Origin: an uncultured Gammaproteobacteria bacterium
GTDB lineage: Bacteria; Patescibacteriota; Microgenomatia; Levybacterales; UBA12049
DNA length: 64,000 bases
Direction: 5' to 3'
Assembly: GCA_964424775.1 (NCBI GenBank)
Contig: CAYRJZ010000001.1
Coordinates: 140,748-204,747 of the forward strand
Position 1 is the first letter of the stretch; the number at the start of each line of letters is the position of its first letter. The position numbers and the translations under genes are program-made. The notes beneath the pieces were generated by a model. That model was given only the letters and a program-made list of their open reading frames with translations, did no database searches and was not told the DNA's origin. This document shows, in pieces, positions 548 through 48,612 of the stretch.

Positions 548-1228
548 ATGAAACAGGGAATCATCATAGCTATTGACGGCCCTGTAGCTTCAGGAAAAGG
601 AACGATTGCTCCCATACTTGCAAAGACCCTTCATGGTTTTTATCTCCATACAGGTGCAATGTATAGATGTGTAGCATTATATTCTCTTGAACATAATCTT
701 ACGTCGGATGCTGACATCATACAAGCGCTTCCTGATATTCATATCAATTTTACCAGTGACAGAACATTGCTTAATGGTGAGGATGTGACAGAAAAGATTC
801 ATCAAAATATTATCTCATCTCGTGTTGCATGGATTGCGACTATCAAAGAAGTAAGGACATTATTAATTGTACAACAACAAAGAATTGGTCGAGAAAAAAC
901 ACAAAAAAGTATTACCGTTATTGCAGAAGGACGAGATACGGGGACTGTTGTCTTCCCAGACGCTGAGGTAAAATTGTTTCTTGATGCATCTGTTGAGACA
1001 CGGGCTCAAAGAAGGCTTGCTCAACTTGAAAAAAGAGGAGAGCATATTACCTTTGAGCAAGTACTAGATGACACAAGAAGGCGGGACGAGTCAGATCAAC
1101 AAAAATCAGGAGCACTTGTAACTGATCCAATTTCACACGGCTATGACATTATTGAGACTACAGGCTTGACTCAGGAAGAAACACTTGAGAGAATACTCTC
1201 TCTGCTTAAAGAGAAGAACATATTATGA
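548..1228 (+). CDS. cmk: Cytidylate (CMP) kinase
   Basis: N-terminal IIIAIDGPVASGKGT P-loop. Length and overall similarity fit the Cmk family. Confidence 0.8.
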   Translation: MKQGIIIAIDGPVASGKGTIAPILAKTLHGFYLHTGAMYRCVALYSLEHNLTSDADIIQALPDIHINFTSDRTLLNGEDVTEKIHQNIISSRVAWIATIKEVRTLLIVQQQRIGREKTQKSITVIAEGRDTGTVVFPDAEVKLFLDASVETRAQRRLAQLEKRGEHITFEQVLDDTRRRDESDQQKSGALVTDPISHGYDIIETTGLTQEETLERILSLLKEKNIL

Positions 1229-6427: not shown

Positions 6428-6838
6428 ATGCATTCTCCTGAAGGACATACGACATCTCCTAACAGTACTCCTTCCTATTCGACAACTCTTGAAGCATATT
6501 CTCGTGATATCAATCTCGCCAATGTTCGTGATCGGACATATGGTATTTTTGTACCTTACATTGCTGAAGCATTTGATGCTCTTCCAGATGATGAACAAAA
6601 TAAAGTAGGTAAGGTGGCATCACAGTTTTCAATGCGTGAAGAAAATGTTCTAAATGCACTAGATTATAGAAACGCCTATCCAAATGAAGTAGCTGCACGA
6701 ATATTACTTAATAGAGTCTTTAGTGAGTCTGAGAGTGTCACTGAAGAAGAAAAAGAACGAGCAGAGAAAATACTATTTGATGCTAAAGGTAAAAAAGATC
6801 CTCATATCCTTTTTGATACAGCTGATCCTCTTCTTTGA
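6428..6838 (+). CDS. Hypothetical protein, 136 aa
   Basis: ORF tightly packed directly after rpsI. No recognisable motif. Confidence 0.4.
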   Translation: MHSPEGHTTSPNSTPSYSTTLEAYSRDINLANVRDRTYGIFVPYIAEAFDALPDDEQNKVGKVASQFSMREENVLNALDYRNAYPNEVAARILLNRVFSESESVTEEEKERAEKILFDAKGKKDPHILFDTADPLL

Positions 6839-6840
6839 AT

Positions 6841-7545
6841 TTATTTTTCCTTCTTATAAATATTAAAAGCGTATGGAATGATGTGTGCAAAGTGATAGAG
6901 GTTAAATAAGAAGAAGATTGAAAGTGCAGAGTATGTTAATAACATTCGAAGTGTTCCATATTTTCTAAATCGTCTGTCAGAGACATACACTGTTTGTGAA
7001 ATTATTCCGAATTTACCCTTCCGTGCGGCATTTCTTATAAAAGCAATATCATCATAACGGAGCGATATGTTAAATTTTACTTTCTCAAATAATTTTTTCT
7101 TTACTATAATTGCAGACCCCGCACCGGAAGGAAATAGCTTTTGGAGTAGAAAAAAAAGTGATGAAAAGTAAATATAAATGGAGGTAATTGGGAGTGTCGA
7201 TTGATACGGCATGTACCAGGGACAAGCGATATGTAATTTCTTTTTTACCAATTCGTTGACTGCATCTCTAATGAAGGTAGGTTTTAGACGAACGTCAGCG
7301 TCTAAAAAGAAGAGAATATCTCCCGAAGCTTTTACTCCGCCTAATGTTCTTTGTCTTGCAACAGGAGGATGACATTGAATAAAGATAATACTGGGGAAAT
7401 TTGCTAGTAGCTTTTTTGTGTTATCTACTGAGTAAGCGTCAACGACAATTATTTCCTTAGGTAGAAGTGTTTGAGTTGAGAGGTCTTTGAGGAGTAATGG
7501 TAATGTTTTTTCTTCATTCAGCGTTGGAATAATGACACTAATCAT
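6841..7545 (-). CDS. Family 2 glycosyltransferase (GT-A fold)
   Basis: N-terminal MISVIIPTLNEE and a DAD acidic motif (FFLDADVRL), typical of GT2. It is 234 aa. Confidence 0.65.
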   Translation of the reverse strand: MISVIIPTLNEEKTLPLLLKDLSTQTLLPKEIIVVDAYSVDNTKKLLANFPSIIFIQCHPPVARQRTLGGVKASGDILFFLDADVRLKPTFIRDAVNELVKKKLHIACPWYMPYQSTLPITSIYIYFSSLFFLLQKLFPSGAGSAIIVKKKLFEKVKFNISLRYDDIAFIRNAARKGKFGIISQTVYVSDRRFRKYGTLRMLLTYSALSIFFLFNLYHFAHIIPYAFNIYKKEK

Positions 7546-7551
7546 AAATAG

Positions 7552-8097
7552 TTAGGAGGAATGAAGAGAAAAAAGTTTTTGGAACAGAGGATTTGTTTCA
7601 AGCAGTTGTGCTTCTTCTACACACCATTCTGAGTACTCATTCGGTAAAGAGATTTCTTCTAAAAACTTTTTCCATGGAACATATCTTGTTTCTGCGACTT
7701 CATCAGGATTGGGTATTGGCAACTCATCAGTAAAGCCAATCATCACTGGACAAATTTCATTTTCAACTATTCCTTTATGTTCATAGCGGTAACGATAATT
7801 TGGAAGGATAATTGATAGGTCAATATTTGTTAAATTAAGTTCAAAAGAAAGTCTTCTTTTCCCTGCATCTACAACGCTCTCATCCATCATCGGATGTCCA
7901 CAACAACTATTTGACCAAATAAGTGGCCAGGTCTTTTTTTTGTTACTTCTTCTCTGAAGAAGTAAATTTCCGTCTCTATTAAAGAGAAAAACAGAAAATC
8001 CCCGGTGAAGGGGAGTTGTGTCGCTATGGGCATCATACTTATCCATGGTCCCAAGCGGAATATTTTTTTCATCAACTAAGACAACATATTCTTTCAT
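7552..8097 (-). CDS. idi: Isopentenyl-diphosphate delta-isomerase, type 1 (Nudix fold)
   Basis: QRRSNKKKTWPLIWSNSCCGHP and EHKGIVENEICPVMIG align with the E. coli Idi active-site region ([22 protein letters not shown]...). The start is taken at the internal ATG (MKEYVVLVDE) because the track start at 8181 overlaps the neighbouring gene. Confidence 0.8.
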   Translation of the reverse strand: MKEYVVLVDEKNIPLGTMDKYDAHSDTTPLHRGFSVFLFNRDGNLLLQRRSNKKKTWPLIWSNSCCGHPMMDESVVDAGKRRLSFELNLTNIDLSIILPNYRYRYEHKGIVENEICPVMIGFTDELPIPNPDEVAETRYVPWKKFLEEISLPNEYSEWCVEEAQLLETNPLFQKLFSLHSS

Positions 8098-8125
8098 ATA
8101 TCTTTGGTAACTATAGCATAGAAGA

Positions 8126-9265
8126 TTACTTTGTTGAACGAGAAGTATTTGAGGAAATAAAATCAAAAACTGTTTGAACAAGTCCTCCTAGTACCATAAG
8201 GTATAGGATAAAGATGCTAAACCAACCAAGAATAGGAATAAATGAAAGAAGTAGTACTACAACTGGCCCAAGTACCGCAGCTTTCCAGTCGAGCACATAT
8301 TCTTTTTTATTTCTTTTTTCCCACCAGCTAAGAATTTTTGCTCCAACATAGATCTTGAGTAAGCCAAGCGAAAGAAGGAGCAAGAGTATATACACAACAA
8401 ACCAGGTAATTCCTAACCAGATAATAATGAGGAGGAACAACCCCGCAACTGGCATAAGGAAAAGTGAACTAAATCCAAGTCCTAAACTCTTGATCTTTGA
8501 TAACTCAATTTTCTCGAGTACTTCCTTCGTAATAAATCCGAGAACGAGGACAAATAAGAGACTGAAGAGAATATCCATAACTAATGTGTAAATGGTACCT
8601 GCGCTGATGAGTGCTTTTGCTTGTTCATTACTTCGATGTTCTTGCTCTGTATAACGAGTATTTCCTTTGACAACAGCTCCCTCCTGAGATATCACTTTCT
8701 CCTCAGAGGTATACGTTAAATCGCCTGCAATTGATGCAGAAGATCCTATTGTTAGTTGTCCCATATTGCCTGAAACATCTCCTCCAACTGGTGCATTTAT
8801 GCGGACATCACCACCATTTGCATACACATTTCCTTTTACTGGACCTTCAACTTCTAACGTACCTCCGGTTATTATGAGGTCTCCTCCAACAGATGATGTT
8901 TTAGAGAGTCGTATAGTGCCCCCTGCAACAATAAGATCTTCTCCAATGGAGTCTTCGATGGTGATTGTTCCTCCGGCAATTCGTGCAGATTGTGAAATAG
9001 GACCGCTGATTGTAATAGTGCCACCAGCTGCCATAAGGCTTCTCTGTATCTCGCCTTCAAAAAGAAGAGTTCCTCCTGCAGCGACGATATCTTTTTGCGA
9101 AGATACACTTACCTCAACTCGGTCACCAGCAAGATACGTGTTTTCAAGAAGGGGGGTTTTTGAGAAAAAGACGTTTTCACCACTTTTAAATGTCGCTGCT
9201 GAAGCTGACGGTGTGAAAAGAAGCAGGAGACAAATGAGTAAAATGATCTTTTTGATGAGTTTCAT
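8126..9265 (-). CDS. Membrane protein with a signal peptide, bactofilin-like beta-helix repeats and four C-terminal transmembrane helices
   Basis: Start taken at MKLIKKIILLICLLLLFTPSASA, a signal peptide. Then about ten imperfect repeats of roughly 17 aa (AGGTITISGP / AGGTIRLSK / TGGTLEVEG / NGGDVRINAP) resembling bactofilin/DUF583-type right-handed beta-helix units. These are followed by four hydrophobic helices. Confidence 0.55.
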   Translation of the reverse strand: MKLIKKIILLICLLLLFTPSASAATFKSGENVFFSKTPLLENTYLAGDRVEVSVSSQKDIVAAGGTLLFEGEIQRSLMAAGGTITISGPISQSARIAGGTITIEDSIGEDLIVAGGTIRLSKTSSVGGDLIITGGTLEVEGPVKGNVYANGGDVRINAPVGGDVSGNMGQLTIGSSASIAGDLTYTSEEKVISQEGAVVKGNTRYTEQEHRSNEQAKALISAGTIYTLVMDILFSLLFVLVLGFITKEVLEKIELSKIKSLGLGFSSLFLMPVAGLFLLIIIWLGITWFVVYILLLLLSLGLLKIYVGAKILSWWEKRNKKEYVLDWKAAVLGPVVVLLLSFIPILGWFSIFILYLMVLGGLVQTVFDFISSNTSRSTK

Positions 9266-9334
9266 TTCCACTATAATAGCATTACTAAACCATATTATAC
9301 CAAGGATTACAATGATATTGATCACACAGTAAAT

Positions 9335-10156
9335 ATGAAAAAATTAATAAAAATTAGTCGACCACGATTTTGGATCTATTTATTCGGCCCATTCTTAATT
9401 GGACTTGCCGTAGGAGGAATAAATAGAGATTATTTTTCTCTTGATCTCCTAGTCTTGGGTCTTTATTTTCTCTTTCCTGCAAACTTTCTTTTGTATGGTA
9501 TAAATGATATTTTTGATTATGCTACAGATAAACTCAATCCAAAGAAAAAGAAGTATGAAGAACTCGTTACTCCAAAAGAACAAAAAAGACTTTTTCAACG
9601 AATACTTCTCTTAACACTGCCTTTTTTTATCTATAGCGTATTTATCTCCCTTGAAGTAGGCACACTTTTGGGGTTATTTGTACTTCTTTCTCTGCAGTAT
9701 TCCTCTCCTCCCATAAGAGCAAAGTCTAAACCATTTCTTGATATGGTATTTAATGGGCTGTATATTATCCCAGGTATTATTTCCTATTTTATTATTTCCG
9801 GAACATATCCATCTCCTCTCATTATTTTTTCTGCACTGTTTTGGACTATGGCAATGCACGCATATTCAGCTGTCCCAGATATTAGTGTTGATAGAAATGC
9901 ACATATTCAGACAATAGCAACGCAATTAGGTTTTACACCAACACTCTATCTGTGTCTTGTCTTATATATCATTTCAGCACTACTTATTTATCCGTTTCTA
10001 GGAGTTTTTGCCATCTTTGTTGCACTTATTTATGTCACTTTAATGTCACTCTCTCTCATGAGTAATGAAACAGACATATTCTCTCTTTATAAGAAATTCC
10101 CAATCATAAATACCATTGTAGGAGGACTATTATTTTTCTATCTTTTGTTAAAGTGA
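9335..10156 (+). CDS. UbiA-family membrane prenyltransferase, possibly a lycopene-elongase-like enzyme
   Basis: 273 aa with 7-8 predicted TM helices and the UbiA-superfamily Asp-rich motif NDIFDYATD (NDxxDxxxD). It lies within the crt gene cluster. Confidence 0.6.
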   Translation: MKKLIKISRPRFWIYLFGPFLIGLAVGGINRDYFSLDLLVLGLYFLFPANFLLYGINDIFDYATDKLNPKKKKYEELVTPKEQKRLFQRILLLTLPFFIYSVFISLEVGTLLGLFVLLSLQYSSPPIRAKSKPFLDMVFNGLYIIPGIISYFIISGTYPSPLIIFSALFWTMAMHAYSAVPDISVDRNAHIQTIATQLGFTPTLYLCLVLYIISALLIYPFLGVFAIFVALIYVTLMSLSLMSNETDIFSLYKKFPIINTIVGGLLFFYLLLK

Positions 10157-11647
10157 AGATAATGGATGAGATGACTTTATTCCTTGAATTCTTTTATATG
10201 CAAGTTCTGCACTAATGAGACAAATAGGGACACCTATACCAGGATTGGTATTTCCTCCGACATAATAGAGATTTTTTACTTTTTTGCTTTTATTATTTGG
10301 TCGAAAAATAGCTGTTTGTTTAAGTGTATGAGCAAGACCTAAAGCAGATCCTTTATAGCTATTGTATCTTTCTTCAAATTCTCTTACTGAGAAGAATTCC
10401 TCAACTTCAAGATGCGTTTTGATATTTGGTACTTTCATAGTATCTTCTAAAAATTGATACGTTTTATTTTTATATATTTCTATATCATTTTTTGTTAAAG
10501 TCATTCCTGGTGCAATTGGTACAAGCACAAAAAGATTTTCTTTACCAGAAGGAGCCACACTTGGATCAGTATAGCTTGGACAGCACACATATAAGGATGG
10601 ATCATTAGGGAGTTGGGGATGTTCAAATATTTGAGAAAAATTTCGTTTCCAGTTATTTGAAAAATATAAATTATGATGAACTAAACTTTTAACTTTCGTG
10701 TTAAGTCCAAGATATAAAAGAAACGTTGAGGGAGCAAGTGTTTTTTTTCCCCAGTAATCCTCATTATACGTTTGTGATTCAGGTTCAAGGAGAACCGTTT
10801 CAGTGTGATGCATATCTGCATTTGAGATGACAAGATCTGCTTGAATTCGTTCGTTTCCAATTTTTACCCCAGTTGTAGTTCCATTTTCTACAACAATTTT
10901 TGTAATCGAAGAGGATGTATGGTATGTAACTCCATGTTTTTTTCCAATGGCTACGAGACTTTTTACGATTTCATACATTCCTCCCATCGGGTAAAATACG
11001 CCCATATTAAAATCAATATGGCTCATAATGTTATAGAGTGCAGGAGTGTTATACGGTGATGCACCAAGAAACACGAGATGATACATGAGGATTTTTCTCA
11101 TTTCATCTGATGAGAATCTCTTTGAAACATAGGAATCCATTGATTCGAAAACAGAAAGTTTACTTCCCCTCGTCATGAGATCCCATGTAAAAAAATCTTT
11201 GATAGAATTATAATTTTTGTACATAAAATTATTGATTGCAATTTCATATTGACGTTTTGCTGTGTCTAAATACTTATCTAGTTTTTCTAAGCTATTTTCT
11301 TCAAAATTCTCAAATATCCTTTTGTTTTTTTGCATATCGGAAAAAACATCAACTGGCTTTTCTTTTCCGCTAAAGAAAATTCTGTATGAGGGAGATAGTT
11401 TAACGAGTTTGAGATGATCTTCTACCCGTTCTCCAAGGAGTTTATAGAAATGTTCAAAAACATCCGGCATGAGGTACCACGATGGTCCCATATCAAAAAT
11501 GAACCCTTTTTTCTTTAGGATATTACATCTACCACCAAGAGTTGCGTTTTTTTCAAAGAGTTCAACTGAGTATCCTTTTTTTGCAAGAAGTGCAGCTGCT
11601 GCAAGTCCACCTATTCCGCCACCAATAATAATAACTTTTTTTTTCAT
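10148..11647 (-). CDS. crtI: Phytoene desaturase family oxidoreductase (CrtI/CrtN-type)
   Basis: N-terminal FAD-binding VIIIGGGIGGLAAAALLAKKGY. The IFDMGPSWYLMPDVFE motif is characteristic of CrtI-family desaturases. It is 499 aa. Confidence 0.8.
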   Translation of the reverse strand: MKKKVIIIGGGIGGLAAAALLAKKGYSVELFEKNATLGGRCNILKKKGFIFDMGPSWYLMPDVFEHFYKLLGERVEDHLKLVKLSPSYRIFFSGKEKPVDVFSDMQKNKRIFENFEENSLEKLDKYLDTAKRQYEIAINNFMYKNYNSIKDFFTWDLMTRGSKLSVFESMDSYVSKRFSSDEMRKILMYHLVFLGASPYNTPALYNIMSHIDFNMGVFYPMGGMYEIVKSLVAIGKKHGVTYHTSSSITKIVVENGTTTGVKIGNERIQADLVISNADMHHTETVLLEPESQTYNEDYWGKKTLAPSTFLLYLGLNTKVKSLVHHNLYFSNNWKRNFSQIFEHPQLPNDPSLYVCCPSYTDPSVAPSGKENLFVLVPIAPGMTLTKNDIEIYKNKTYQFLEDTMKVPNIKTHLEVEEFFSVREFEERYNSYKGSALGLAHTLKQTAIFRPNNKSKKVKNLYYVGGNTNPGIGVPICLISAELAYKRIQGIKSSHPLSSL

Positions 11648-12706
11648 TTATGAATTTCGAGCAAGGTTGTAGGAAAGAAGTTCTGATAAAACTGTTTTAT
11701 ATTTTTCAGAAATTTTTAAATCTTCGATAAGTGTCTGTGCACCATGTGCTAACTTAGTCATTTCATTCTGTATCTCGTCACGGGTTCCTGTTTTAGTAAT
11801 AATATTTCGCACATACTCTATCATCTCAGGAGTAAGATCTTTATTTCCAAAAATTTTGGAAAGCCTTTCTTTCTCAGTAGAATTTACTTTATTGAATAAT
11901 GTTGTGTAGTAAAGTGTTTTCTTTTCTTCGCGAATGTCAGAGCCAACTGGTTTTCCAATTTTTTCTTCATTTCCAAATAGACCAAGTTCATCATCTCTCA
12001 TTTGAAAAATTATTCCGAGGGATTCACCCAATCTCTCAAGTGATTTCAGGACACTTCTGGACTCACCACACAGAAGCGCGCCGGCCAGAAGTGGAAGGGT
12101 AAAGGTATAGCGTGCAGTTTTATAGGTATACATTGCAAGAATTTGTTCTTCTGTTACTCTTTTATCACTTCCTCCAAAGTAAACATCCTGCATCTGCATG
12201 AGGCCAACAGCAGTCATTTCATCAGAGAAGAGTTGAATAATTCGTGTTTTTCTGTCAGGGTCTCCCTGGAGCTGAGATAAAAGAGAATATGCAAGAAAAA
12301 AACCAATATCACCTACACATATACCCATACTTATCCCAAATTGGTGAGGGGAGGAAAGGTGCTCTTTTTCTCCTAAATCTTCATATTGGGCAAAGATAGT
12401 ACGTTGTCCTCTTCGAGTGTAATCATTATCCATAATGTCATCATGGATAAGAAGAGAGGTATGGAGGAGTTCTAATGCAACAGCAAGATGTAATCCGTCT
12501 TCTGAGTTCTGTCCTGAAAACATTTCTTCAGAAAGAAGAACAAGCCCTCCTCGAATCATTTTTCCCTCAGTTGCGAAATCTTGCAATCTATGGAGAACAT
12601 CAGGGCCAAACATATTAATTTTATGCAGTTGAGCTTCTTGCCTTTTTAAGTAGGAAAGAAGATGATGTGAGATCACAAATTTTTTTTCTTTAAAATACTT
12701 TTCCAT
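11648..12706 (-). CDS. crtE: Polyprenyl diphosphate synthase (GGPP/FPP synthase family)
   Basis: First Asp-rich motif LIHDDIMDNDYTRRG and second motif FQMRDDELG. The start may instead be the internal Met at about 12613, because 12706 overlaps crtB by 17 nt. Confidence 0.8.
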   Translation of the reverse strand: MEKYFKEKKFVISHHLLSYLKRQEAQLHKINMFGPDVLHRLQDFATEGKMIRGGLVLLSEEMFSGQNSEDGLHLAVALELLHTSLLIHDDIMDNDYTRRGQRTIFAQYEDLGEKEHLSSPHQFGISMGICVGDIGFFLAYSLLSQLQGDPDRKTRIIQLFSDEMTAVGLMQMQDVYFGGSDKRVTEEQILAMYTYKTARYTFTLPLLAGALLCGESRSVLKSLERLGESLGIIFQMRDDELGLFGNEEKIGKPVGSDIREEKKTLYYTTLFNKVNSTEKERLSKIFGNKDLTPEMIEYVRNIITKTGTRDEIQNEMTKLAHGAQTLIEDLKISEKYKTVLSELLSYNLARNS

Positions 12707-13523
12707 TATTTAATGTCCTCAACAGAGCTGTAGATGCAATGCGGAAGATACTTGGCTTAATTTTTTGTGAGTATACTATAAAAGGATTATTATAGATTTG
12801 CTCTGCGCTCCACATGTACATTATAGCAGCTGTTTCTATAGGTATCCGCGATTTTTTGGAGATAAATTTAAAACCATCAAAGGCATTTTGCTGCCATTTT
12901 CTATATCTATTAATTTCACTTCTTATAAGTGCTATAAATTGCTTTGGGTTTTCTCGTGCAGTTTTTTCACGGAGATCAGATAGGCTATATTTTTGAAGAA
13001 CAATGTGAGGGATGTATGTTCTCCCTAACTCATTATCTTCAGCAATATCACGAATGAAATTAATGTACTGCATGGCACGACCTTGAAGAGATGCAGTTTT
13101 ATATGTCTCACTGGGTAAATGCAGAATTTTAGCCATCATCAGTCCAATTACTTCAGCAGAACCGTACATATACTCTTCTGTTTCTTTAAATGTTATATAT
13201 TTTTTTTTCGTAAGATCATTTGACATTGAGGTGAAAAACGCTTCCACCCATTTTTTTTCAAAATTCATTCTATGAAAAAGCTCTCCAAATTCAGAGACTA
13301 TTCGAATTGGTGAATGACCTGTTATTAAATAATCTTTCCAAGACTTTTTGAATGAATGAAATCCTTCTTTGTCTTGAGGCAGAGTGTCTACGAAGTTATC
13401 TACTGTACGGACAAAGGCATAAAGAATAAAAACATCTTTGCGGATTTCTTTAGGGAAAAAGAGAGAACTATAAAAATAGGTTTTACTCCCTTTTTTCATG
13501 ATCTGAAATGAAGAAGGTGACAT
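12690..13523 (-). CDS. crtB: Phytoene/squalene synthase family protein
   Basis: Trans-isoprenyl diphosphate synthase head-to-head fold with the motif YAFVRTVDNFVD, a variant of YxxxRxxDDxxD. It is co-oriented with crtE and crtI. Confidence 0.75.
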   Translation of the reverse strand: MSPSSFQIMKKGSKTYFYSSLFFPKEIRKDVFILYAFVRTVDNFVDTLPQDKEGFHSFKKSWKDYLITGHSPIRIVSEFGELFHRMNFEKKWVEAFFTSMSNDLTKKKYITFKETEEYMYGSAEVIGLMMAKILHLPSETYKTASLQGRAMQYINFIRDIAEDNELGRTYIPHIVLQKYSLSDLREKTARENPKQFIALIRSEINRYRKWQQNAFDGFKFISKKSRIPIETAAIMYMWSAEQIYNNPFIVYSQKIKPSIFRIASTALLRTLNNGKVF

Positions 13524-13587
13524 GACTCACGTATTATAAATCCTGTCGTAATTGCTTGCAAATTGAAGGAGGGGTATAATCGCTTTC

Positions 13588-14634
13588 ATGTATCGTGCAG
13601 AAAGTAAAATAGAAACTGTTATTAATAGAGCAATTGAAAAAAAAGTATTCCCTGGATGTGTCGTAGGTATTTATGACAATGGACAAGTCCATGTTTATCC
13701 TTTTGGAAAGTATACGTATAATCAATCCTCGCATTCAGTTGCATCTGATACTCTTTATGATATTGCCTCTTTAACGAAAGTGATCCCAACATCACTTCTC
13801 ACACTCCATTTGATTGATAGAGATTACATTGATCTCAATACCTCAGTTGCATCTTTGCTTCCACTATTTGAAGGAAAATATAAAAATAAAGTAACACTTT
13901 TCCACCTCCTCACCCAGACGGTTACTTTTCCATTTACTCTTTCTGCTTATACTTCCCTTTCAGCAGATGAATTACGCTCTCTTATTCTTACCTCAGATCT
14001 TGTTTGTCTCCCGGGTACACAGTTCACCTATACAAACGCATCAAGCATTCTTTTGGGATGGGTCATAGAAAAAGTAACGGGTAAAAGCCTAGCAAAAGCA
14101 GCAAAAGATATGTTATTTGAGCCTCTTCAGTTAATTCATACTACTTTTATCCCACCAGTTGAGATGAGCGTTCCGACAGAAATACAGGATGGTAAAGAGA
14201 TTTATGGAGTAGTGCATGATGAAAGCGCTCGGATATTTAGTAGGAAAAGAAATTATGTAGGATCTGCTGGAGTATTCTCAAGTGCAGGAGATATTCTTAA
14301 AATTTTAGAGATAATTTTAAAAGATGGCAAAATCGGTGAATCTATTTTTTTATCAAAAAAGATTATTTCTTTGATGGAGACAAATCAGCTCGCTAATATA
14401 GGTGTTTCGCATGGTCTAGGATGGGAGTTAGATCAGGAGATTTTTATGGGAAAAATTTCAAAAGGAAGGACAATTGGCAAAACTGGCTTTACAGGGTGTA
14501 GTATGATGGTAAATAGAGAACAGCAAAAAGCATTAGTAATATTGTCAAACCATATTTATCCTCACAGACGTGTGAGTCGTGAATCTATAAATAGTTTGAG
14601 GCAAGAATGCGCTGAAGCAGTATTCCAGGGGTAA
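13588..14634 (+). CDS. Serine hydrolase of the beta-lactamase/transpeptidase fold (class C / esterase-like)
   Basis: S-x-x-K (SLTK), Y-x-N (YTNAS) and K-T-G (GKTGFTG) motifs in the canonical order. Confidence 0.7.
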   Translation: MYRAESKIETVINRAIEKKVFPGCVVGIYDNGQVHVYPFGKYTYNQSSHSVASDTLYDIASLTKVIPTSLLTLHLIDRDYIDLNTSVASLLPLFEGKYKNKVTLFHLLTQTVTFPFTLSAYTSLSADELRSLILTSDLVCLPGTQFTYTNASSILLGWVIEKVTGKSLAKAAKDMLFEPLQLIHTTFIPPVEMSVPTEIQDGKEIYGVVHDESARIFSRKRNYVGSAGVFSSAGDILKILEIILKDGKIGESIFLSKKIISLMETNQLANIGVSHGLGWELDQEIFMGKISKGRTIGKTGFTGCSMMVNREQQKALVILSNHIYPHRRVSRESINSLRQECAEAVFQG

Positions 14635-14638
14635 AAAT

Positions 14639-15271
14639 ATGAAAAAAATTAAAGAGGGGATATATAAGCATTATAAAGGCAACAACTATCAAGTAATTGG
14701 TACTGCTCATCATAGTGAAACGCTTGAAGAAGTAGTTGTGTATAAAGCACTTTATGATCATAAAGAGTATGGGAAAGATGCATTGTGGGTTCGTCCTGCA
14801 AAGATGTTTGTTGAGAAGATTGAAAAAAATGGTAAAGTGCTGAATCGTTTTTCTTTTGAACACCCCTCCCCTCCTCATCCCAGAGTAGGTGTTGGGATAA
14901 TTGTCGTCAGAAAAGGGAAAGTATTAATGGGAAAAAGAAAGGGGGCTCATGGAGAAGGAGCATGGTCAGTTCCAGGAGGTAATCTTGAGTATGGAGAAAA
15001 TATTGAAGAATGTGCAGTTCGAGAGGTATTTGAAGAAACGGGAATAAAGATTAAGGATACTCAATTCATAACAGTTACAAATGACGTTTTTCAAAAAGAA
15101 AATAAACACTATATAACTTTATGGATGAGAGCGTCGTCGAATAGTGGGAAAATAGTGATTTCAGAACCTGATAAATTCTTAGAAATAAAATGGGTAGATC
15201 CTGAACAACTACCCAAACCTATTTTCTTACCATTAGTACATTTTCTTAAAAGGTATTCTCTCACTGAATAA
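14639..15271 (+). CDS. DUF1653 domain fused to a NUDIX hydrolase
   Basis: The N-terminal 70 aa, GIYKHYKGNNYQVIGTAHHSETLEEVVVYKALY...WVRPAKMF, match the DUF1653 consensus. The C-terminus carries a Nudix box GKRKGAHGEGAWSVPGGNLEYGENIEECAVREVFEETGI. Confidence 0.7.
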   Translation: MKKIKEGIYKHYKGNNYQVIGTAHHSETLEEVVVYKALYDHKEYGKDALWVRPAKMFVEKIEKNGKVLNRFSFEHPSPPHPRVGVGIIVVRKGKVLMGKRKGAHGEGAWSVPGGNLEYGENIEECAVREVFEETGIKIKDTQFITVTNDVFQKENKHYITLWMRASSNSGKIVISEPDKFLEIKWVDPEQLPKPIFLPLVHFLKRYSLTE

Positions 15272-43724: not shown

Positions 43725-44603
43725 CTATTCAACCTTTTTGAAGAACGAGAGAAAATCCTCTTTCGCAGTTGATGGACTATCTTTTTGAACAACTTCTTGT
43801 ATAAATCGAGCGAGAGGAAGAGGGCATTGGTACTTTTCTTCAAAAAACTCAACTGAAAAAAGTGAGTTATATCCCTCAACGGTACTGTTGATAGTCTCGA
43901 GACTTTTCTCAACACTCATATGAGAAATCAATTTACCAAATCGAAAATTGCGGCTTTCTTCACTACTACATGAGAGCATCATATCACCAAGTGTTCCAAA
44001 GATGGCATCATCAGGAAGAGAAATATTCATAGCGCGGGATAGTCGTGTCACTTCTTCAATTGCGAGCATAGTCAGAGAAATCCGAGTATTTACTTTATAT
44101 CCCACCCCCGTTGCAAGCCCTGCGCCAATTGCATAGATATTTTTAAATGCTCCAAATAGCTCCATCGCTTCAACACCGCGCGCAAGCCGTACATGAAAAA
44201 AATCAGTTTGGAAAAGCTTTTTTATTTCTTCTTTCGATACGGAATTTTCTGAATAACCTAAGTTAATACTTGTCGGCATTTTTTGGATAATTTCTGATGC
44301 AAAACTAGGCCCCATGAGTGAGTAGTATTCTCCATCTGGGTATATTTCTTCAAGAATATCGTAGGGAAGTCTATGACTGGCGTGTTCAATCCCTTTTGAA
44401 GTGTTGACGATTATTTTCTTGTCAGTAAAAGAGATAAAGGGAAGGGCCTTCGTTATAGCTTCAGTCGGGATAGCAAGAACAAGTACGTTAACGTCCTCAC
44501 ATGTCTCTTCTCTTCCGACAAGGGTAACATCTGGAGTGTTCTCACGGATAACTGATTCAAGTGCTATTCCAAAAGCTCCACGACCAAGAATTGCTACTTT
44601 CAT
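43725..44603 (-). CDS. gpsA: NAD(P)H-dependent glycerol-3-phosphate dehydrogenase
   Basis: N-terminal Rossmann MKVAILGRGAFGIA and a GpsA C-terminal domain. The start is taken at MKVAILG. Confidence 0.7.
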   Translation of the reverse strand: MKVAILGRGAFGIALESVIRENTPDVTLVGREETCEDVNVLVLAIPTEAITKALPFISFTDKKIIVNTSKGIEHASHRLPYDILEEIYPDGEYYSLMGPSFASEIIQKMPTSINLGYSENSVSKEEIKKLFQTDFFHVRLARGVEAMELFGAFKNIYAIGAGLATGVGYKVNTRISLTMLAIEEVTRLSRAMNISLPDDAIFGTLGDMMLSCSSEESRNFRFGKLISHMSVEKSLETINSTVEGYNSLFSVEFFEEKYQCPLPLARFIQEVVQKDSPSTAKEDFLSFFKKVE

Positions 44604-44619
44604 ACCATTAAGTATTTCA

Positions 44620-45000
44620 CTAACGATGGAGTCTGCGCAAGTCACGTTCAGTAAGACCAAAGTAATGCCCGATTTCATGCTCAACTGTTGAACGGATTTG
44701 CTCTCTTATGCGCTCAGCATGACGATGATAGCGAACAATTGGCTTTTTGAAAATAAATATTTGATCAGGCATCTGAAGAATAGCACCTGCTCTTTTTGGA
44801 AGAGGTACTCCCTGGTAAAGGCCAAAGAGTTCCTGATAGGGACGGACTCGTCCAAGACGCCGGTGTTCTATGCTGGGTTCGTCTTCAACAATAATTGCGA
44901 TATTTTTCAGTTCTAGTCGGAATTCCTTGGGCAGTGATGCAACTGCCTGATCAACTAAACGTTGAAACTCTTCATCAGAAATAAGTACTTCTTCCTCCAT
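44620..45000 (-). CDS. Small HExxH metallopeptidase-like protein (DUF1025-like)
   Basis: C-terminal HEIGHYFGL zincin motif. Confidence 0.45.
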   Translation of the reverse strand: MEEEVLISDEEFQRLVDQAVASLPKEFRLELKNIAIIVEDEPSIEHRRLGRVRPYQELFGLYQGVPLPKRAGAILQMPDQIFIFKKPIVRYHRHAERIREQIRSTVEHEIGHYFGLTERDLRRLHR

Positions 45001-47687: not shown

Positions 47688-48485
47688 TTATCTTTTCAGA
47701 TCAGGAACATCCTGTATTAATTGATCATACATGGTATCCTTCATCATTTTACTAAATGCTTTGAGAGGTAGTTTCCCATCAGGACTAAGTGATCTATACG
47801 AAAACGGTTCGCTAATTCGCATGACAGGTCTTCTTAAAGGTTCTGCTAAGTGTGCCATTGTAACTATTTGTGTTGGCGTATCTGGGAAATATCGTCTGAG
47901 AATTGCCGCTGCTCCTCCACGGACATTACTTAAGTCATTTTGAGGTGATCTTGTTTCTTGAGCGAACATCCCGACCATTTGTCCATCCTCAAGTGACTCT
48001 CTCACTTCATCAATGAACTCTGCACTTATTTCTCCTCGATGTATAGGAATAGGATTGCCTGCGGATTTGAGAAAGTTCGCACGCGCTTTTTTAAAAAGTG
48101 TAACTTTTGGTTCAGGAAGAGTTATTTCCTCGCCTTCTGCCATTTCTCTTTCAGGTAACTTACCTAATCTTCGAAGGACAGCTTCTGATTCTTGAATTGA
48201 TGGATCAAGAAGCGTATCACGTGCAACAACACGCATACTTCTATTCGCAGTATGTGCTGCAAGCCAAGGGAGAGCAAAGACATCAAGAAAATGAACATGA
48301 TTAGCGAAAACAAGTGCTGGTCCCTCTTCAAGGAGCTGTCCATGTACTTCTGTTCGACGGAGTCGGGCAATTGCTTCAGCGCCGGTGACAAGTGTCTTCC
48401 ATTTGCTGTTTTCTAACGCAGGGTCTTCAATTCGTATACCACGAAATCTTGGCTGATCTTGTGAGGAAGGTAATTCTTTTCCCAT
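47688..48485 (-). CDS. plsC: Lysophospholipid acyltransferase (PlsC/AGPAT family)
   Basis: H-x4-D motif NHVHFLD, and an acyltransferase block II/III spacing consistent with the family. Confidence 0.6.
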   Translation of the reverse strand: MGKELPSSQDQPRFRGIRIEDPALENSKWKTLVTGAEAIARLRRTEVHGQLLEEGPALVFANHVHFLDVFALPWLAAHTANRSMRVVARDTLLDPSIQESEAVLRRLGKLPEREMAEGEEITLPEPKVTLFKKARANFLKSAGNPIPIHRGEISAEFIDEVRESLEDGQMVGMFAQETRSPQNDLSNVRGGAAAILRRYFPDTPTQIVTMAHLAEPLRRPVMRISEPFSYRSLSPDGKLPLKAFSKMMKDTMYDQLIQDVPDLKR

Positions 48486-48541
48486 AAATTAGGACAGTTG
48501 TGGCATTATACTCTGCTTTTTCTCAAATTTAAAGTGTTATG

Positions 48542-48612
48542 TCGGGGATCGGAGAATTGAACTCCGGTCACACGGACCCCATCCGCGCATTCTACCGTTA
48601 AACTAATCCCCG
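48542..48612 (-). tRNA. tRNA-Pro (anticodon GGG), no encoded CCA
   Basis: Minus-strand sequence CGGGGAT-TA-GTTT-AACGGTA-GAAT-G-CGCGG-ATGGGGT-CCGTG-TGAC-CGGAG-TTCAATT-CTCCG-ATCCCCG-A folds as a cloverleaf. Acceptor stem 7/7 WC, anticodon stem 5 bp (4 WC, 1 G-U), T stem 5/5 WC, and a D stem with two G-U pairs. The C1:G72 pair plus A73 is the ProRS identity set. The anticodon loop AUGGGGU has U33 and G37. Confidence 0.8.

Follow-up and report, generated by a model that had tools for sequence, protein, structure and literature searches.

Among known clusters for acyclic C50 carotenoids of the bacterioruberin series are the haloarchaeal crtI/crtD-lyeJ-cruF clusters, such as c0507-c0505 of Haloarcula japonica and that of Halobacterium salinarum, which have the canonical order crtI-lyeJ-cruF and are represented here by plasmids of Halocatena salina and Halarchaeum (L086 and L087). 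A bifunctional CrtI/CrtD was shown experimentally in Haloarcula japonica (PMC11946383). Among bacteria, LyeJ/CruF clusters are predicted in Acidobacteriota (Pyrinomonadaceae, Chloracidobacterium), Abditibacteriota, Armatimonadota and Propionibacteriales (L001-L080), and lyeJ, crtD and cruF were reported from Lake Baikal Patescibacteria, where cruF is unlinked to lyeJ/crtD (Haro-Moreno et al. 2023, PMC9948471). Compact GGPPS-CrtB-CrtI/UbiA modules are also found in Saccharibacteria, Paceibacteria and Peribacteria MAGs (L050, L060, L064, L071, L076). Cyclic C50 carotenoids are represented by the decaprenoxanthin cluster crtE-crtB-crtI-crtYe/Yf-crtEb of Corynebacterium glutamicum and by an Arthrobacter plasmid locus (L088). 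CPR bacteria are generally portrayed as having a minimal metabolism and relying on their hosts for lipids.

Here we describe a carotenoid gene cluster in a 64-kb stretch of CPR DNA (hereafter, the window). We consider it probable, at roughly 0.7, that the cluster constitutes a working acyclic C50 carotenoid pathway of the bacterioruberin series, carried on an island 3′ of rpsI in one Levybacteria-like subclade.

Genomic setting of the island

The carotenoid core consists of seven tightly packed genes, identified by profile searches as members of the GT2, type-1 IPP isomerase, DUF8173, UbiA, CrtI, GGPP-synthase-like and SQS_PSY families, and lies within an island of ~8.8 kb directly 3′ of rpsI (Table 1). 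The preliminary description of this DNA had placed the ORFs exactly where we found them, and each of its family assignments proved correct in Pfam and NCBIfam searches.

Table 1. Features of the island and its carotenoid core (window positions).
Feature	Position	Strand	Support
Gene island	~6428-15271		~8.8 kb, directly 3′ of rpsI
136-aa protein, left island edge	6428-6838	+	
Carotenoid core	6841-13523		seven genes
Small family-2 glycosyltransferase (GT2)	6841-7545	-	PF00535 73.5 bits; TIGR04283 110.9 (below cut-off 182)
Type-1 isopentenyl-diphosphate isomerase (IDI; IPP <-> DMAPP)	7552-8097	-	NF002995 200.7 bits (cut-off 127); TIGR02150 127.4 bits
DUF8173 membrane protein	8126-9265 (ORF 8126-9325)	-	L081 and L084 orthologues annotated PF26514
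Putative LyeJ-type UbiA prenyltransferase (lycopene elongase/hydratase)	9335-10156	+	PF01040 75.9 bits; NF009516 260.7 (cut-off 205)
CrtI-family phytoene desaturase	10148-11647	-	TIGR02734 515.7 bits (cut-off 238)
Short-chain trans-prenyl diphosphate synthase	11648-12706	-	PF00348 188.8 bits; 17-nt overlap with crtB
Phytoene synthase (CrtB), divergent SQS_PSY member	12690-13523	-	PF00494 164.7 bits
Promoter-like site upstream of crtB	13533-13562	-	TTGCAA-17-TATAAT, 10/12 consensus matches
Class-C beta-lactamase/PBP4B-like protein and DUF1653-NUDIX fusion (right-hand passengers)	13588-15271	+	PF00144 171.8 bits; PF07866 + PF00293

The host is a CPR bacterium, as had been proposed. RpoA of the adjacent ribosomal operon had its best named matches in the Patescibacteria group (78%) and Candidatus Levybacteria (70-76%), and L30 is lacking in the ribosomal operons of relatives L089-L092, as L15 follows S5 there within 2-3 nt (the window starts downstream of that point). 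A misbinned or chimeric contig, with carotenoid genes from outside the CPR, for example from an acidobacterium, might be suspected because the UbiA homologues in GTDB come most often from Acidobacteriota, in which rplM-rpsI also lies only a few kb from the cluster. However, the cluster is physically continuous with the ribosomal operon, whose proteins match Levybacteria, and five independent assemblies, each drawn from a different sample, have it at the same site after rpsI, which argues against misbinning. In CrtI trees, moreover, Acidobacteriota sequences fall into a clade of their own (bootstrap support 100%), and the sister of the window clade was CPR-labelled in 95-98 of 100 replicates. 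Together with a GC content, GC3 and codon usage equal to those of the rest of the window, these results make a foreign contig extremely improbable.

The same backbone lacks the island in the more distant Levybacteria-like relatives L089, L090, L091 and L093; the split between island-present and island-absent loci was recovered in 200 of 200 bootstrap replicates, and the cluster is confined to one subclade. Thus, the ~8.8-kb island was gained (or lost) once, and the crt cluster is inherited vertically within the subclade. The preliminary description had regarded the cluster as probably horizontally acquired. Presence or absence at a conserved backbone site in a single subclade agrees with acquisition, but the island is fully ameliorated with native composition, and the sequences closest to its CrtI come from other CPR rather than from an outside donor. 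All cluster genes are under purifying selection (dN/dS 0.07-0.21 against the closest relative, L081).

Genes for lycopene supply

The genes expected to supply lycopene, encoding GGPP synthase, phytoene synthase and phytoene desaturase, are all present with intact motifs. The mechanically called IDI ORF reaches a TTG at 8181 and orthologues begin at the methionine of MKEYVV, so the true start is probably 8097. The catalytic motifs of IDI (NSCCGHP and ENEICP) are intact, and the enzyme would furnish the DMAPP donor for the elongase. In ~50 Acidobacteriota loci among the best 80 GTDB loci, IDI is fused to CruF beside the same UbiA gene, which ties IDI to a bacterioruberin-type pathway. No source of IPP was found within the 64-kb window; its supply is plausible, since most Microgenomates carry the mevalonate pathway (PMC6107057).

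The prenyl diphosphate synthase retains both Asp-rich motifs (D89DIMD and D238DELG). Its closest solved structures are the GGPP synthases of C. glutamicum (3lk5, 125 bits) and Pyrococcus (1wy0), and it has the unusual second motif DDxxG in common with 3lk5. It is most likely a GGPP synthase (CrtE/IdsA-like), with the chain length deduced from this resemblance. CrtB has both DxxxD motifs (D42NFVD and D159IAED), including the second, whose absence the preliminary description had named as grounds for rejecting its reading. Compared with their counterparts in other LyeJ clusters, the prenyl synthase and CrtB show only 24-34% identity, and they passed family-level but not equivalog models; CrtB fell below the cut-off of every equivalog model, as did the CrtBs of other LyeJ clusters.

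CrtI, the sole desaturase of the cluster, carries a GGGIGG motif and is 43% identical to the haloarchaeal crtI product encoded next to lyeJ. It scored 631.4 bits on NF058655 (CrtID, bifunctional phytoene desaturase/3,4-desaturase), just under the cut-off of 640, where the haloarchaeal enzymes reach ~750. The desaturase thus fits C40 CrtI/CrtD models rather than grouping with amine oxidases, and it possibly has 3,4-desaturase activity as well.

If the SQS_PSY protein were instead a CrtM/HpnD-like enzyme acting on FPP and the GT2 a CrtQ-like one, the product would be a C30 (diapocarotenoid, staphyloxanthin-like) or squalene-type compound; a squalene-like triterpenoid had indeed been offered as an alternative. 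The best NCBIfam score of the synthase was on HpnD, its closest structures (5iys, annotated as 'phytoene synthase', and CrtM) are about equally distant (65-73 bits), and the prenyl synthase has S and L at positions -5/-4 relative to its first Asp-rich motif, which leave its chain length unfixed. The HpnD ranking is uninformative, however, because HpnD is also the top model for CrtBs from bona fide LyeJ/CruF clusters, and the scores on HpnD (115.8 bits, cut-off 278.6), HpnC (72.5, cut-off 250) and HpnE (45.2, cut-off 283) were all far too low. The fit of the desaturase to the C40 model and the similarity of the prenyl synthase to crystallised GGPP synthases also speak against C30 chemistry, and there was no squalene-hopene cyclase among the 40 window proteins scanned. 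We therefore regard a C30 or squalene-type pathway as very unlikely.

A predicted LyeJ-type elongase in a cluster lacking CruF

The UbiA protein is, as judged from its sequence, a LyeJ-type lycopene elongase/hydratase. It passes the NCBI cut-off for haloarchaeal lycopene elongases on NF009516, a model on which haloarchaeal LyeJ orthologues from crtI-lyeJ-cruF clusters score 397-426 bits, in keeping with the elongated C45/C50 and possibly glycosylated carotenoid suggested in the preliminary description. Its Asp-rich motifs, N57DIFDYATD and D182ISVD (NDxxDxxxD and DxxxD), are both invariant in a 28-sequence alignment, and its homologues are labelled 'lycopene elongase/hydratase' by JGI. Of the best 80 GTDB loci, 71 have a CruF-like gene alongside this UbiA gene, and nearly all have CrtI and CrtB as well, so that bacterioruberin-type clusters are the usual setting of the family. 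A LyeJ-type UbiA together with a desaturase best matching haloarchaeal bifunctional CrtI/CrtD points to a bacterioruberin-series C45/C50 pathway.

Alternatively, the product of the cluster might be no larger than C40, namely lycopene or a hydroxylated derivative, with UbiA prenylating another acceptor, for example a lipid or quinone-like molecule. UbiA is only 35-37% identical to haloarchaeal LyeJ, CruF is absent and, to our knowledge, no bacterial member of this UbiA clade, LyeJ-type or otherwise, has been biochemically characterised. Set against this are the NF009516 score above the equivalog cut-off, the 9-nt overlap between the 3′ ends of UbiA and crtI, and the recurrence of the convergent UbiA-CrtI pair in nearly all of the best 80 loci, across six phyla; as far as we know, most CPR also have no quinones to prenylate. 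An exclusively C40 product is accordingly unlikely, though the least improbable of the alternatives considered here.

A cyclic C50 pathway with CrtEb and a CrtYe/Yf-type cyclase was rejected. UbiA scored below the cut-offs of the CrtEb-like models NF009608 (132.7 against 217) and NF010119 (135.6 against 248) and is 30% identical to the Arthrobacter CrtEb-like gene product, and the core has no spare ORF space for cyclase genes, as all intergenic gaps are <70 bp.

CruF was sought with an HMM built from 60+ CruF-like neighbours, and no match was obtained in the six-frame translation of the 64-kb window, in the 20-kb loci of close relatives (L081-L085) or in eight other CPR loci; PF04240 and TIGR03460 likewise had no match among the 40 window proteins scanned. 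The 64-kb window therefore does not encode the complete route to bacterioruberin, and we predict that synthesis ends with (dihydro)bisanhydrobacterioruberin, which may be glycosylated.

Other genes of the island

The GT2 has a DxD motif (D82AD) and lies 6 nt downstream of IDI, which it overlaps by 4 nt in L081. It is present in the window, L081, L082, L083 and L092, absent in L084, and evolves with a dN/dS of 0.21; no GT2 homologue occurs near LyeJ in the best 80 GTDB loci. From its operon adjacency in this one subclade, it is a candidate carotenoid glycosyltransferase. The DUF8173 protein has a signal peptide, a beta-solenoid and four C-terminal TM helices; in an AF2 model (mean pLDDT 71) the solenoid spans residues 30-205 and the helices 210-377, and Foldseek returned only generic beta-helix matches. 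DUF8173 proteins form a large family, with 1010 representative clusters at E<=1e-30, and the gene is absent from L082 and L092. Its possible homology to CruF was rejected (hhalign probability 0.15%).

The 136-aa protein at the left edge generated no Pfam or NCBIfam match; orthologues were found only in the crt-carrying L081 and L082, and crt-less backbones lack it. Both right-hand passengers accompany the cluster in L081 and L084, and the NUDIX fusion also in L082. At the backbone site of the crt-less L089-L091 and L093 neither has a full-length homologue, the sole trace being a weak partial NUDIX match elsewhere in L091 (33% identity, 32% coverage). There is no evidence connecting these passengers to the carotenoid pathway. 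The promoter-like site upstream of crtB is only suggestive, because the consensus scan as a whole was not enriched (31 sites against 26 expected from shuffles). In L082 and L092 a photolyase is inserted within the island, which fits a light-related role.

Proposed pathway and its implications

In the proposed pathway, IDI would interconvert IPP and DMAPP, the prenyl synthase would form GGPP, and CrtB would condense two GGPP to phytoene. The single CrtI-type desaturase would convert phytoene to lycopene and may also perform later 3,4-desaturations, as in its closest characterised Haloarcula relatives. The LyeJ-type UbiA would then add C5 units from DMAPP at C-2/C-2′ with hydration at C-1/C-1′, giving hydroxylated C45/C50 carotenoids, namely C50H76O2 without 3,4-desaturation or C50H72O2 (bisanhydrobacterioruberin) with it. 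With no local CruF, the pathway probably ends at this hydroxylated C50 stage. The GT2, being co-transcribed, may attach sugars to the tertiary hydroxyls; end product and glycosylation are both inferred. The physiological role is presumed to be membrane stiffening or photoprotection. More tentatively, the subclade, although regarded as unable to make fatty-acid lipids of its own, could make, de novo, a glycosylated, CruF-independent bisanhydrobacterioruberin-type C50 carotenoid through one bifunctional desaturase and a LyeJ-type elongase, for use as a membrane rivet and/or photoprotectant. If so, it would count as the first membrane lipid or pigment of endogenous origin to be assigned to Microgenomates. 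The bacterioruberin pathway would gain a shortened form, and the small GT2 would be a new carotenoid glycosyltransferase.

An intact, selected and syntenically fixed island suggests that some CPR lineages build a long membrane-spanning isoprenoid themselves, which bears on membrane stabilisation in ultra-small cells and on coping with light or cold. The presence/absence polymorphism at rpsI offers a clean natural comparison of pigmented and unpigmented sister lineages, and with just seven genes the set lends itself to direct heterologous testing. Even so, the finding remains incremental. Close homologues lie on many Patescibacteria contigs, ~20 of the best 80 GTDB loci are CPR-labelled, and homologous modules occur widely among Saccharibacteria, Paceibacteria, Peribacteria and Acidobacteriota. 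As CPR MAGs so often carry this enzyme pair, and bacterioruberin genes of Patescibacteria have been in the literature since 2023 (PMC9948471), the earlier view that such a cluster is unusual in CPR was overstated.

Comparison with known carotenoid clusters

With the haloarchaeal clusters the locus has in common a LyeJ-family UbiA beside a CrtI/CrtD-type desaturase and a phytoene synthase, matches to NF009516 and, just below the cut-off, to NF058655, and the logic of C5 elongation of lycopene with hydration. Unlike them, it lacks CruF and a second desaturase, has UbiA convergent rather than co-directional with crtI, and adds IDI, GGPP synthase, GT2 and DUF8173; sequence identity is limited to the values given above for LyeJ and CrtI, and the host is a CPR bacterium instead of a halophilic archaeon. 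The actinobacterial C50 clusters likewise combine GGPPS, CrtB and CrtI with a UbiA-type lycopene elongase, and can include IDI, and the window's prenyl synthase is closest to C. glutamicum GGPPS 3lk5, but their elongase is CrtEb-type and they carry C50 cyclase genes.

The predicted bacterial LyeJ/CruF clusters have the same order, IDI(-) ... UbiA(+) CrtI(-) CrtB(-), with abutting UbiA/CrtI 3′ ends, and are closer in sequence for UbiA (45-53%) and CrtI (53-62%), CrtB being only ~30% identical. They carry CruF, usually fused to IDI in Acidobacteriota, whereas the window cluster has the GGPP synthase, GT2 and DUF8173 genes that they lack. The Baikal genes and the CPR MAG modules share with the window a CPR host and the combination of a LyeJ-type elongase with a CrtI/D-type desaturase, and several of the modules similarly have no adjacent CruF. 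The gene order is crtB-GGPPS-crtI in the window and GGPPS-crtB-crtI in the modules. The window cluster is further distinguished from both by its Levybacteria-like (Microgenomates) host, by the inclusion of IDI and GT2, and by its being a defined island fixed beside the ribosomal operon.

Gene content of the carotenoid cluster

The ORF list contained seven tightly packed genes whose limits coincide exactly with the 6841-13523 cluster of the preliminary description, and profile searches bore out its assignments to a family-2 glycosyltransferase (GT2), IPP isomerase (IDI), UbiA, CrtI, prenyl synthase and SQS_PSY. A motif check found the catalytic signatures of all cluster enzymes. Loss of the second Asp-rich motif from the CrtB-like synthase had been considered in the preliminary description; both DxxxD motifs were found (D42NFVD and D159IAED). 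Orthologue comparison placed the true start of the IDI gene at 8097 and that of the DUF8173 gene at 9265, the latter being the signal peptide start.

Features of the 64-kb window discussed in the text
Feature	Position	Strand	Evidence or remark
Family-2 glycosyltransferase (GT2)	6841-7545	-	PF00535, 73.5 bits
Type-1 IPP isomerase (IDI)	7552-8181	-	NF002995, 200.7 (cut-off 127)
Membrane protein	8126-9325	-	PF26514/DUF8173 annotated on the L081 and L084 orthologues
UbiA prenyltransferase	9335-10156	+	PF01040, 75.9
CrtI-family desaturase	10148-11647	-	TIGR02734, 515.7 (cut-off 238)
Trans-prenyl synthase	11648-12706	-	PF00348, 188.8
Squalene/phytoene synthase	12690-13523	-	PF00494, 164.7
Class-C beta-lactamase/PBP4B-like gene and DUF1653-NUDIX fusion	13588-15271	+	Co-travelling with the carotenoid island
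Cytidylate kinase	548-1228	+	Between adk and map in the ribosomal/secY operon, likewise in relatives
GpsA (glycerol-3-phosphate dehydrogenase)	43725-44684	-
PlsC-like acyltransferase	47688-48485	-
tRNA-Pro(GGG)	48541-48612	-	Sole tRNA and sole Rfam match in 64 kb

Three transcription units can be recognised. The first, crtB-GGPPS-crtI, runs on the minus strand and has overlapping or abutting genes, with a TTGCAA-17-TATAAT site upstream; the second, DUF8173-IDI-GT2, is also on the minus strand, with gaps of 28 nt and 6 nt; the third is the plus-strand UbiA gene, which at its 3' end overlaps the 3' end of crtI by 9 nt. Every cluster gene showed a dN/dS of 0.07-0.21 against L081, the locus of a relative carrying the cluster. 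Outside the cluster, GpsA and the PlsC-like protein represent glycerolipid assembly; genomes of this type are generally described as devoid of lipid synthesis. The crt-less relatives L089 and L090 have an additional AAA-kinase-like gene in the adk-map region.

Homologous clusters in other genomes and the role of IDI

The whole of GTDB was searched with 28 aligned homologues of the UbiA protein, which returned 579 relatives; the best 80 of these were examined. These 80 loci were mostly from Acidobacteriota (Pyrinomonadaceae, Chloracidobacterium); about 20 carried CPR labels (Saccharibacteria, Paceibacteria, Peribacteria, Parcubacteria), and the remainder were from Abditibacteriota, Armatimonadota and Propionibacteriales. 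The best UbiA identity among GTDB representatives was 53%. In nearly all of the 80 loci the UbiA gene was convergent with CrtI, followed by CrtB, and in 71 of them a CruF-like (bisanhydrobacterioruberin hydratase-like) gene lay divergently upstream of UbiA. Three loci labelled 'uncultured Gammaproteobacteria' (L036, L068, L070) contained a compact CPR-type module, UbiA/CrtI-CrtB-GGPPS, and branched among CPR sequences; their taxonomic labels look doubtful.

CruF is fused to IPP isomerase in about 50 Acidobacteriota loci, which by Rosetta-stone reasoning places IDI in the pathway; its membership is also plausible because the elongase uses DMAPP. The CruF-like/type-1 IDI fusion, found in L008 (8601-9908, minus strand) and about 50 other Acidobacteriota loci among L002-L080, is a single ORF of 430-460 aa divergent from the LyeJ-type gene. 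In L008 the N-terminus matched TIGR03460 (138.5 bits) and the C-terminus NF002995 (222 bits). No description of this fusion was found in the literature examined. No MEP or mevalonate pathway genes were present among the 40 window proteins scanned. Since published surveys assign most Microgenomates a mevalonate pathway that includes IDI-I (PMC6107057), the cluster IDI may double as the housekeeping isomerase of that pathway.

Pathway type and predicted product

The window UbiA protein scored 260.7 on NF009516, above the NCBI equivalog cut-off of 205, and fell below the cut-offs of the sister models NF009608 and NF010119. NF009516 was calibrated with genes from canonical crtI-prenyltransferase-cruF clusters that lie on replicons of the haloarchaea Halocatena and Halarchaeum; as these scored 397-426 bits, the model represents the LyeJ (lycopene elongase/hydratase) family. 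The JGI label of homologues that share about 50% identity with the window protein is 'lycopene elongase/hydratase (dihydrobisanhydrobacterioruberin-forming)', whereas a CrtEb-like gene from an Arthrobacter idi-crtE-crtB-crtI-...-UbiA cluster was only 30% identical. The 1-Mb megaplasmid of Arthrobacter sp. StoSoilB13 (279785-294492 of the record) bears such an idi-crtE-crtB-crtI-...-CrtEb-like C50 carotenoid cluster, which is left unannotated in the PLSDB table.

On NF058655 ('bifunctional phytoene desaturase/3,4-desaturase') the window desaturase reached 631.4 bits, slightly below the cut-off of 640, whereas haloarchaeal desaturases scored about 750 bits; the haloarchaeal crtI adjoining lyeJ was 43% identical to it. 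Bifunctional enzymes of this kind have been shown genetically in Haloarcula japonica (PMC11946383). The crystallised enzymes closest to the window prenyl synthase were the GGPP synthases 3lk5 (Corynebacterium glutamicum) and 1wy0 (Pyrococcus), and it shares a DDxxG second motif with 3lk5. The synthase encoded at the end of the cluster is a divergent SQS_PSY member with HpnD as its top NCBIfam score. This ranking is uninformative on substrate, because the CrtBs of undoubted LyeJ/CruF clusters likewise rank HpnD first. The squalene-like triterpenoid suggested as an alternative in the preliminary description is not supported, the HpnD score (115.8) being far below the cut-off of 278.

The CruF-like neighbours in the GTDB loci scored 137-138 bits on TIGR03460 (cut-off 154.7), and a custom HMM was built from them. 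It matched nothing in the six-frame translation of the 64-kb window, in loci from its close relatives or in eight other CPR loci; the profile search of the 40 window proteins likewise yielded neither CruF nor rhodopsin. The window pathway therefore corresponds to that of bacterioruberin without its final hydrations. In the established Haloarcula/Halobacterium scheme, the end point without CruF is dihydro- or bisanhydrobacterioruberin, in line with the reaction named in the JGI/KEGG annotation; this scheme is reportedly that of Yang et al. 2015. Dihydro-/bisanhydrobacterioruberin is accordingly the product predicted from the gene set. A CruF gene could also lie elsewhere in the genome, as in a Baikal Saccharibacteria MAG (PMC9948471).

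Accessory genes

In the window, L081, L082 and L092, GT2 and IDI form an operon; no such GT2 occurs in L084 or near any of the 80 best GTDB loci. Operon adjacency alone makes GT2 a candidate carotenoid glycosyltransferase. A 226-aa GT2 is encoded on a Halocatena salina plasmid (L086, 2453-3133, minus strand), 1.3 kb from the haloarchaeal crtI-lyeJ-cruF cluster. Both proteins gave full-length, sub-threshold matches to TIGR04283 (102.5 bits for L086, 110.9 for the window) and were alignable with each other only over the generic N-terminal 93 residues.

The DUF8173 protein is predicted to combine a signal peptide with a bactofilin-like beta-solenoid and a bundle of four TM helices (AF2 model), for which Foldseek returned only generic beta-solenoid and TM bundle matches. 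It occupies the usual position of CruF; the possibility that it is a divergent CruF was rejected (hhalign probability 0.15%). L082 and L092 lack the gene, and its family, with 1010 representative clusters (E<=1e-30) of proteins that are all about 380 aa long, is too large to be pathway-specific. The protein was not assigned to the carotenoid pathway.

In L082 (7380-8711, minus strand) and L092 (12882-14231, minus strand), which form one sub-lineage, a class-2 photolyase gene (TIGR00591, 553 bits) is inserted in the island beside GT2. This insertion fits a light-protection context and suggests a light-exposed lifestyle of these CPR. For the beta-lactamase/PBP4B-like and DUF1653-NUDIX genes to the right of the cluster, crt-less relatives have no full-length equivalent at the backbone site. 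Prenyl diphosphates could be candidate substrates of a Nudix enzyme beside isoprenoid genes.

Host identity and history of the island

The RpoA gene lies 1.3 kb upstream of the island. Its product matched a protein on a 346-kb NCBI contig with 100% identity, and its best named relatives were 'Patescibacteria group bacterium' (78%) and several 'Candidatus Levybacteria' (70-76%). In the ribosomal operons of the window's relatives S5 is directly followed by L15, without L30, which is a CPR trait. Both lines of evidence uphold the CPR host of the preliminary description. Its alternative, a misbinned fragment from a non-CPR organism, was not supported and can be ruled out, because the cluster keeps its position immediately after rplM-rpsI in four other lineages (L081, L082/L083, L092 and L084/L085) that come from different samples.

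Four slightly more distant relatives (L089, L093, L090, L091) share the backbone, in the order rpsI, 199-aa gene, PF04020, beta-lactamase2 gene and obg, and their interval holds only an MBL-fold hydrolase gene. Carriers and non-carriers were split in 200/200 bootstraps of an NJ tree of seven concatenated markers, so the island (about 6428-15271) was gained, or lost, once. The CrtI tree within carriers mirrors the marker tree, and descent since this single origin is vertical within carriers.

The preliminary description held the cluster to be probably horizontally acquired. Its presence or absence as an island at a conserved site agrees with this, but its composition is native and no recent outside donor was seen. 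In the comparison with the rest of the window, GC (0.354 vs 0.368), GC3 and codon usage (RSCU distance) were indistinguishable and gave no sign of recent transfer, and no flanking repeats or tRNA genes were found at the island edges. The window clade was monophyletic in NJ trees, with bootstrap values of 88% for UbiA and 99% for CrtI. Its sister in the CrtI tree was CPR-labelled in 95-98 of 100 replicates, and Acidobacteriota and Actinomycetota CrtI formed their own clades (100% each); nothing pointed to a recent donor from outside the CPR.

Comparison with known systems

The carotenoid island is real and functional-looking, and its host is a CPR bacterium. A literature search on carotenoids of Levybacteria or Microgenomates found no paper, and one for the sample accessions was equally negative. 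The kind of finding is already known and not unexpected: lyeJ, crtD and cruF were reported in Lake Baikal Patescibacteria, with bacterioruberin discussed as a membrane adaptation (Haro-Moreno et al. 2023; PMC9948471). New here are the definition of the cluster as an island that is present or absent at a fixed place next to the ribosomal operon, a gene set with a single desaturase and without CruF, and the IDI-GT2 operon.
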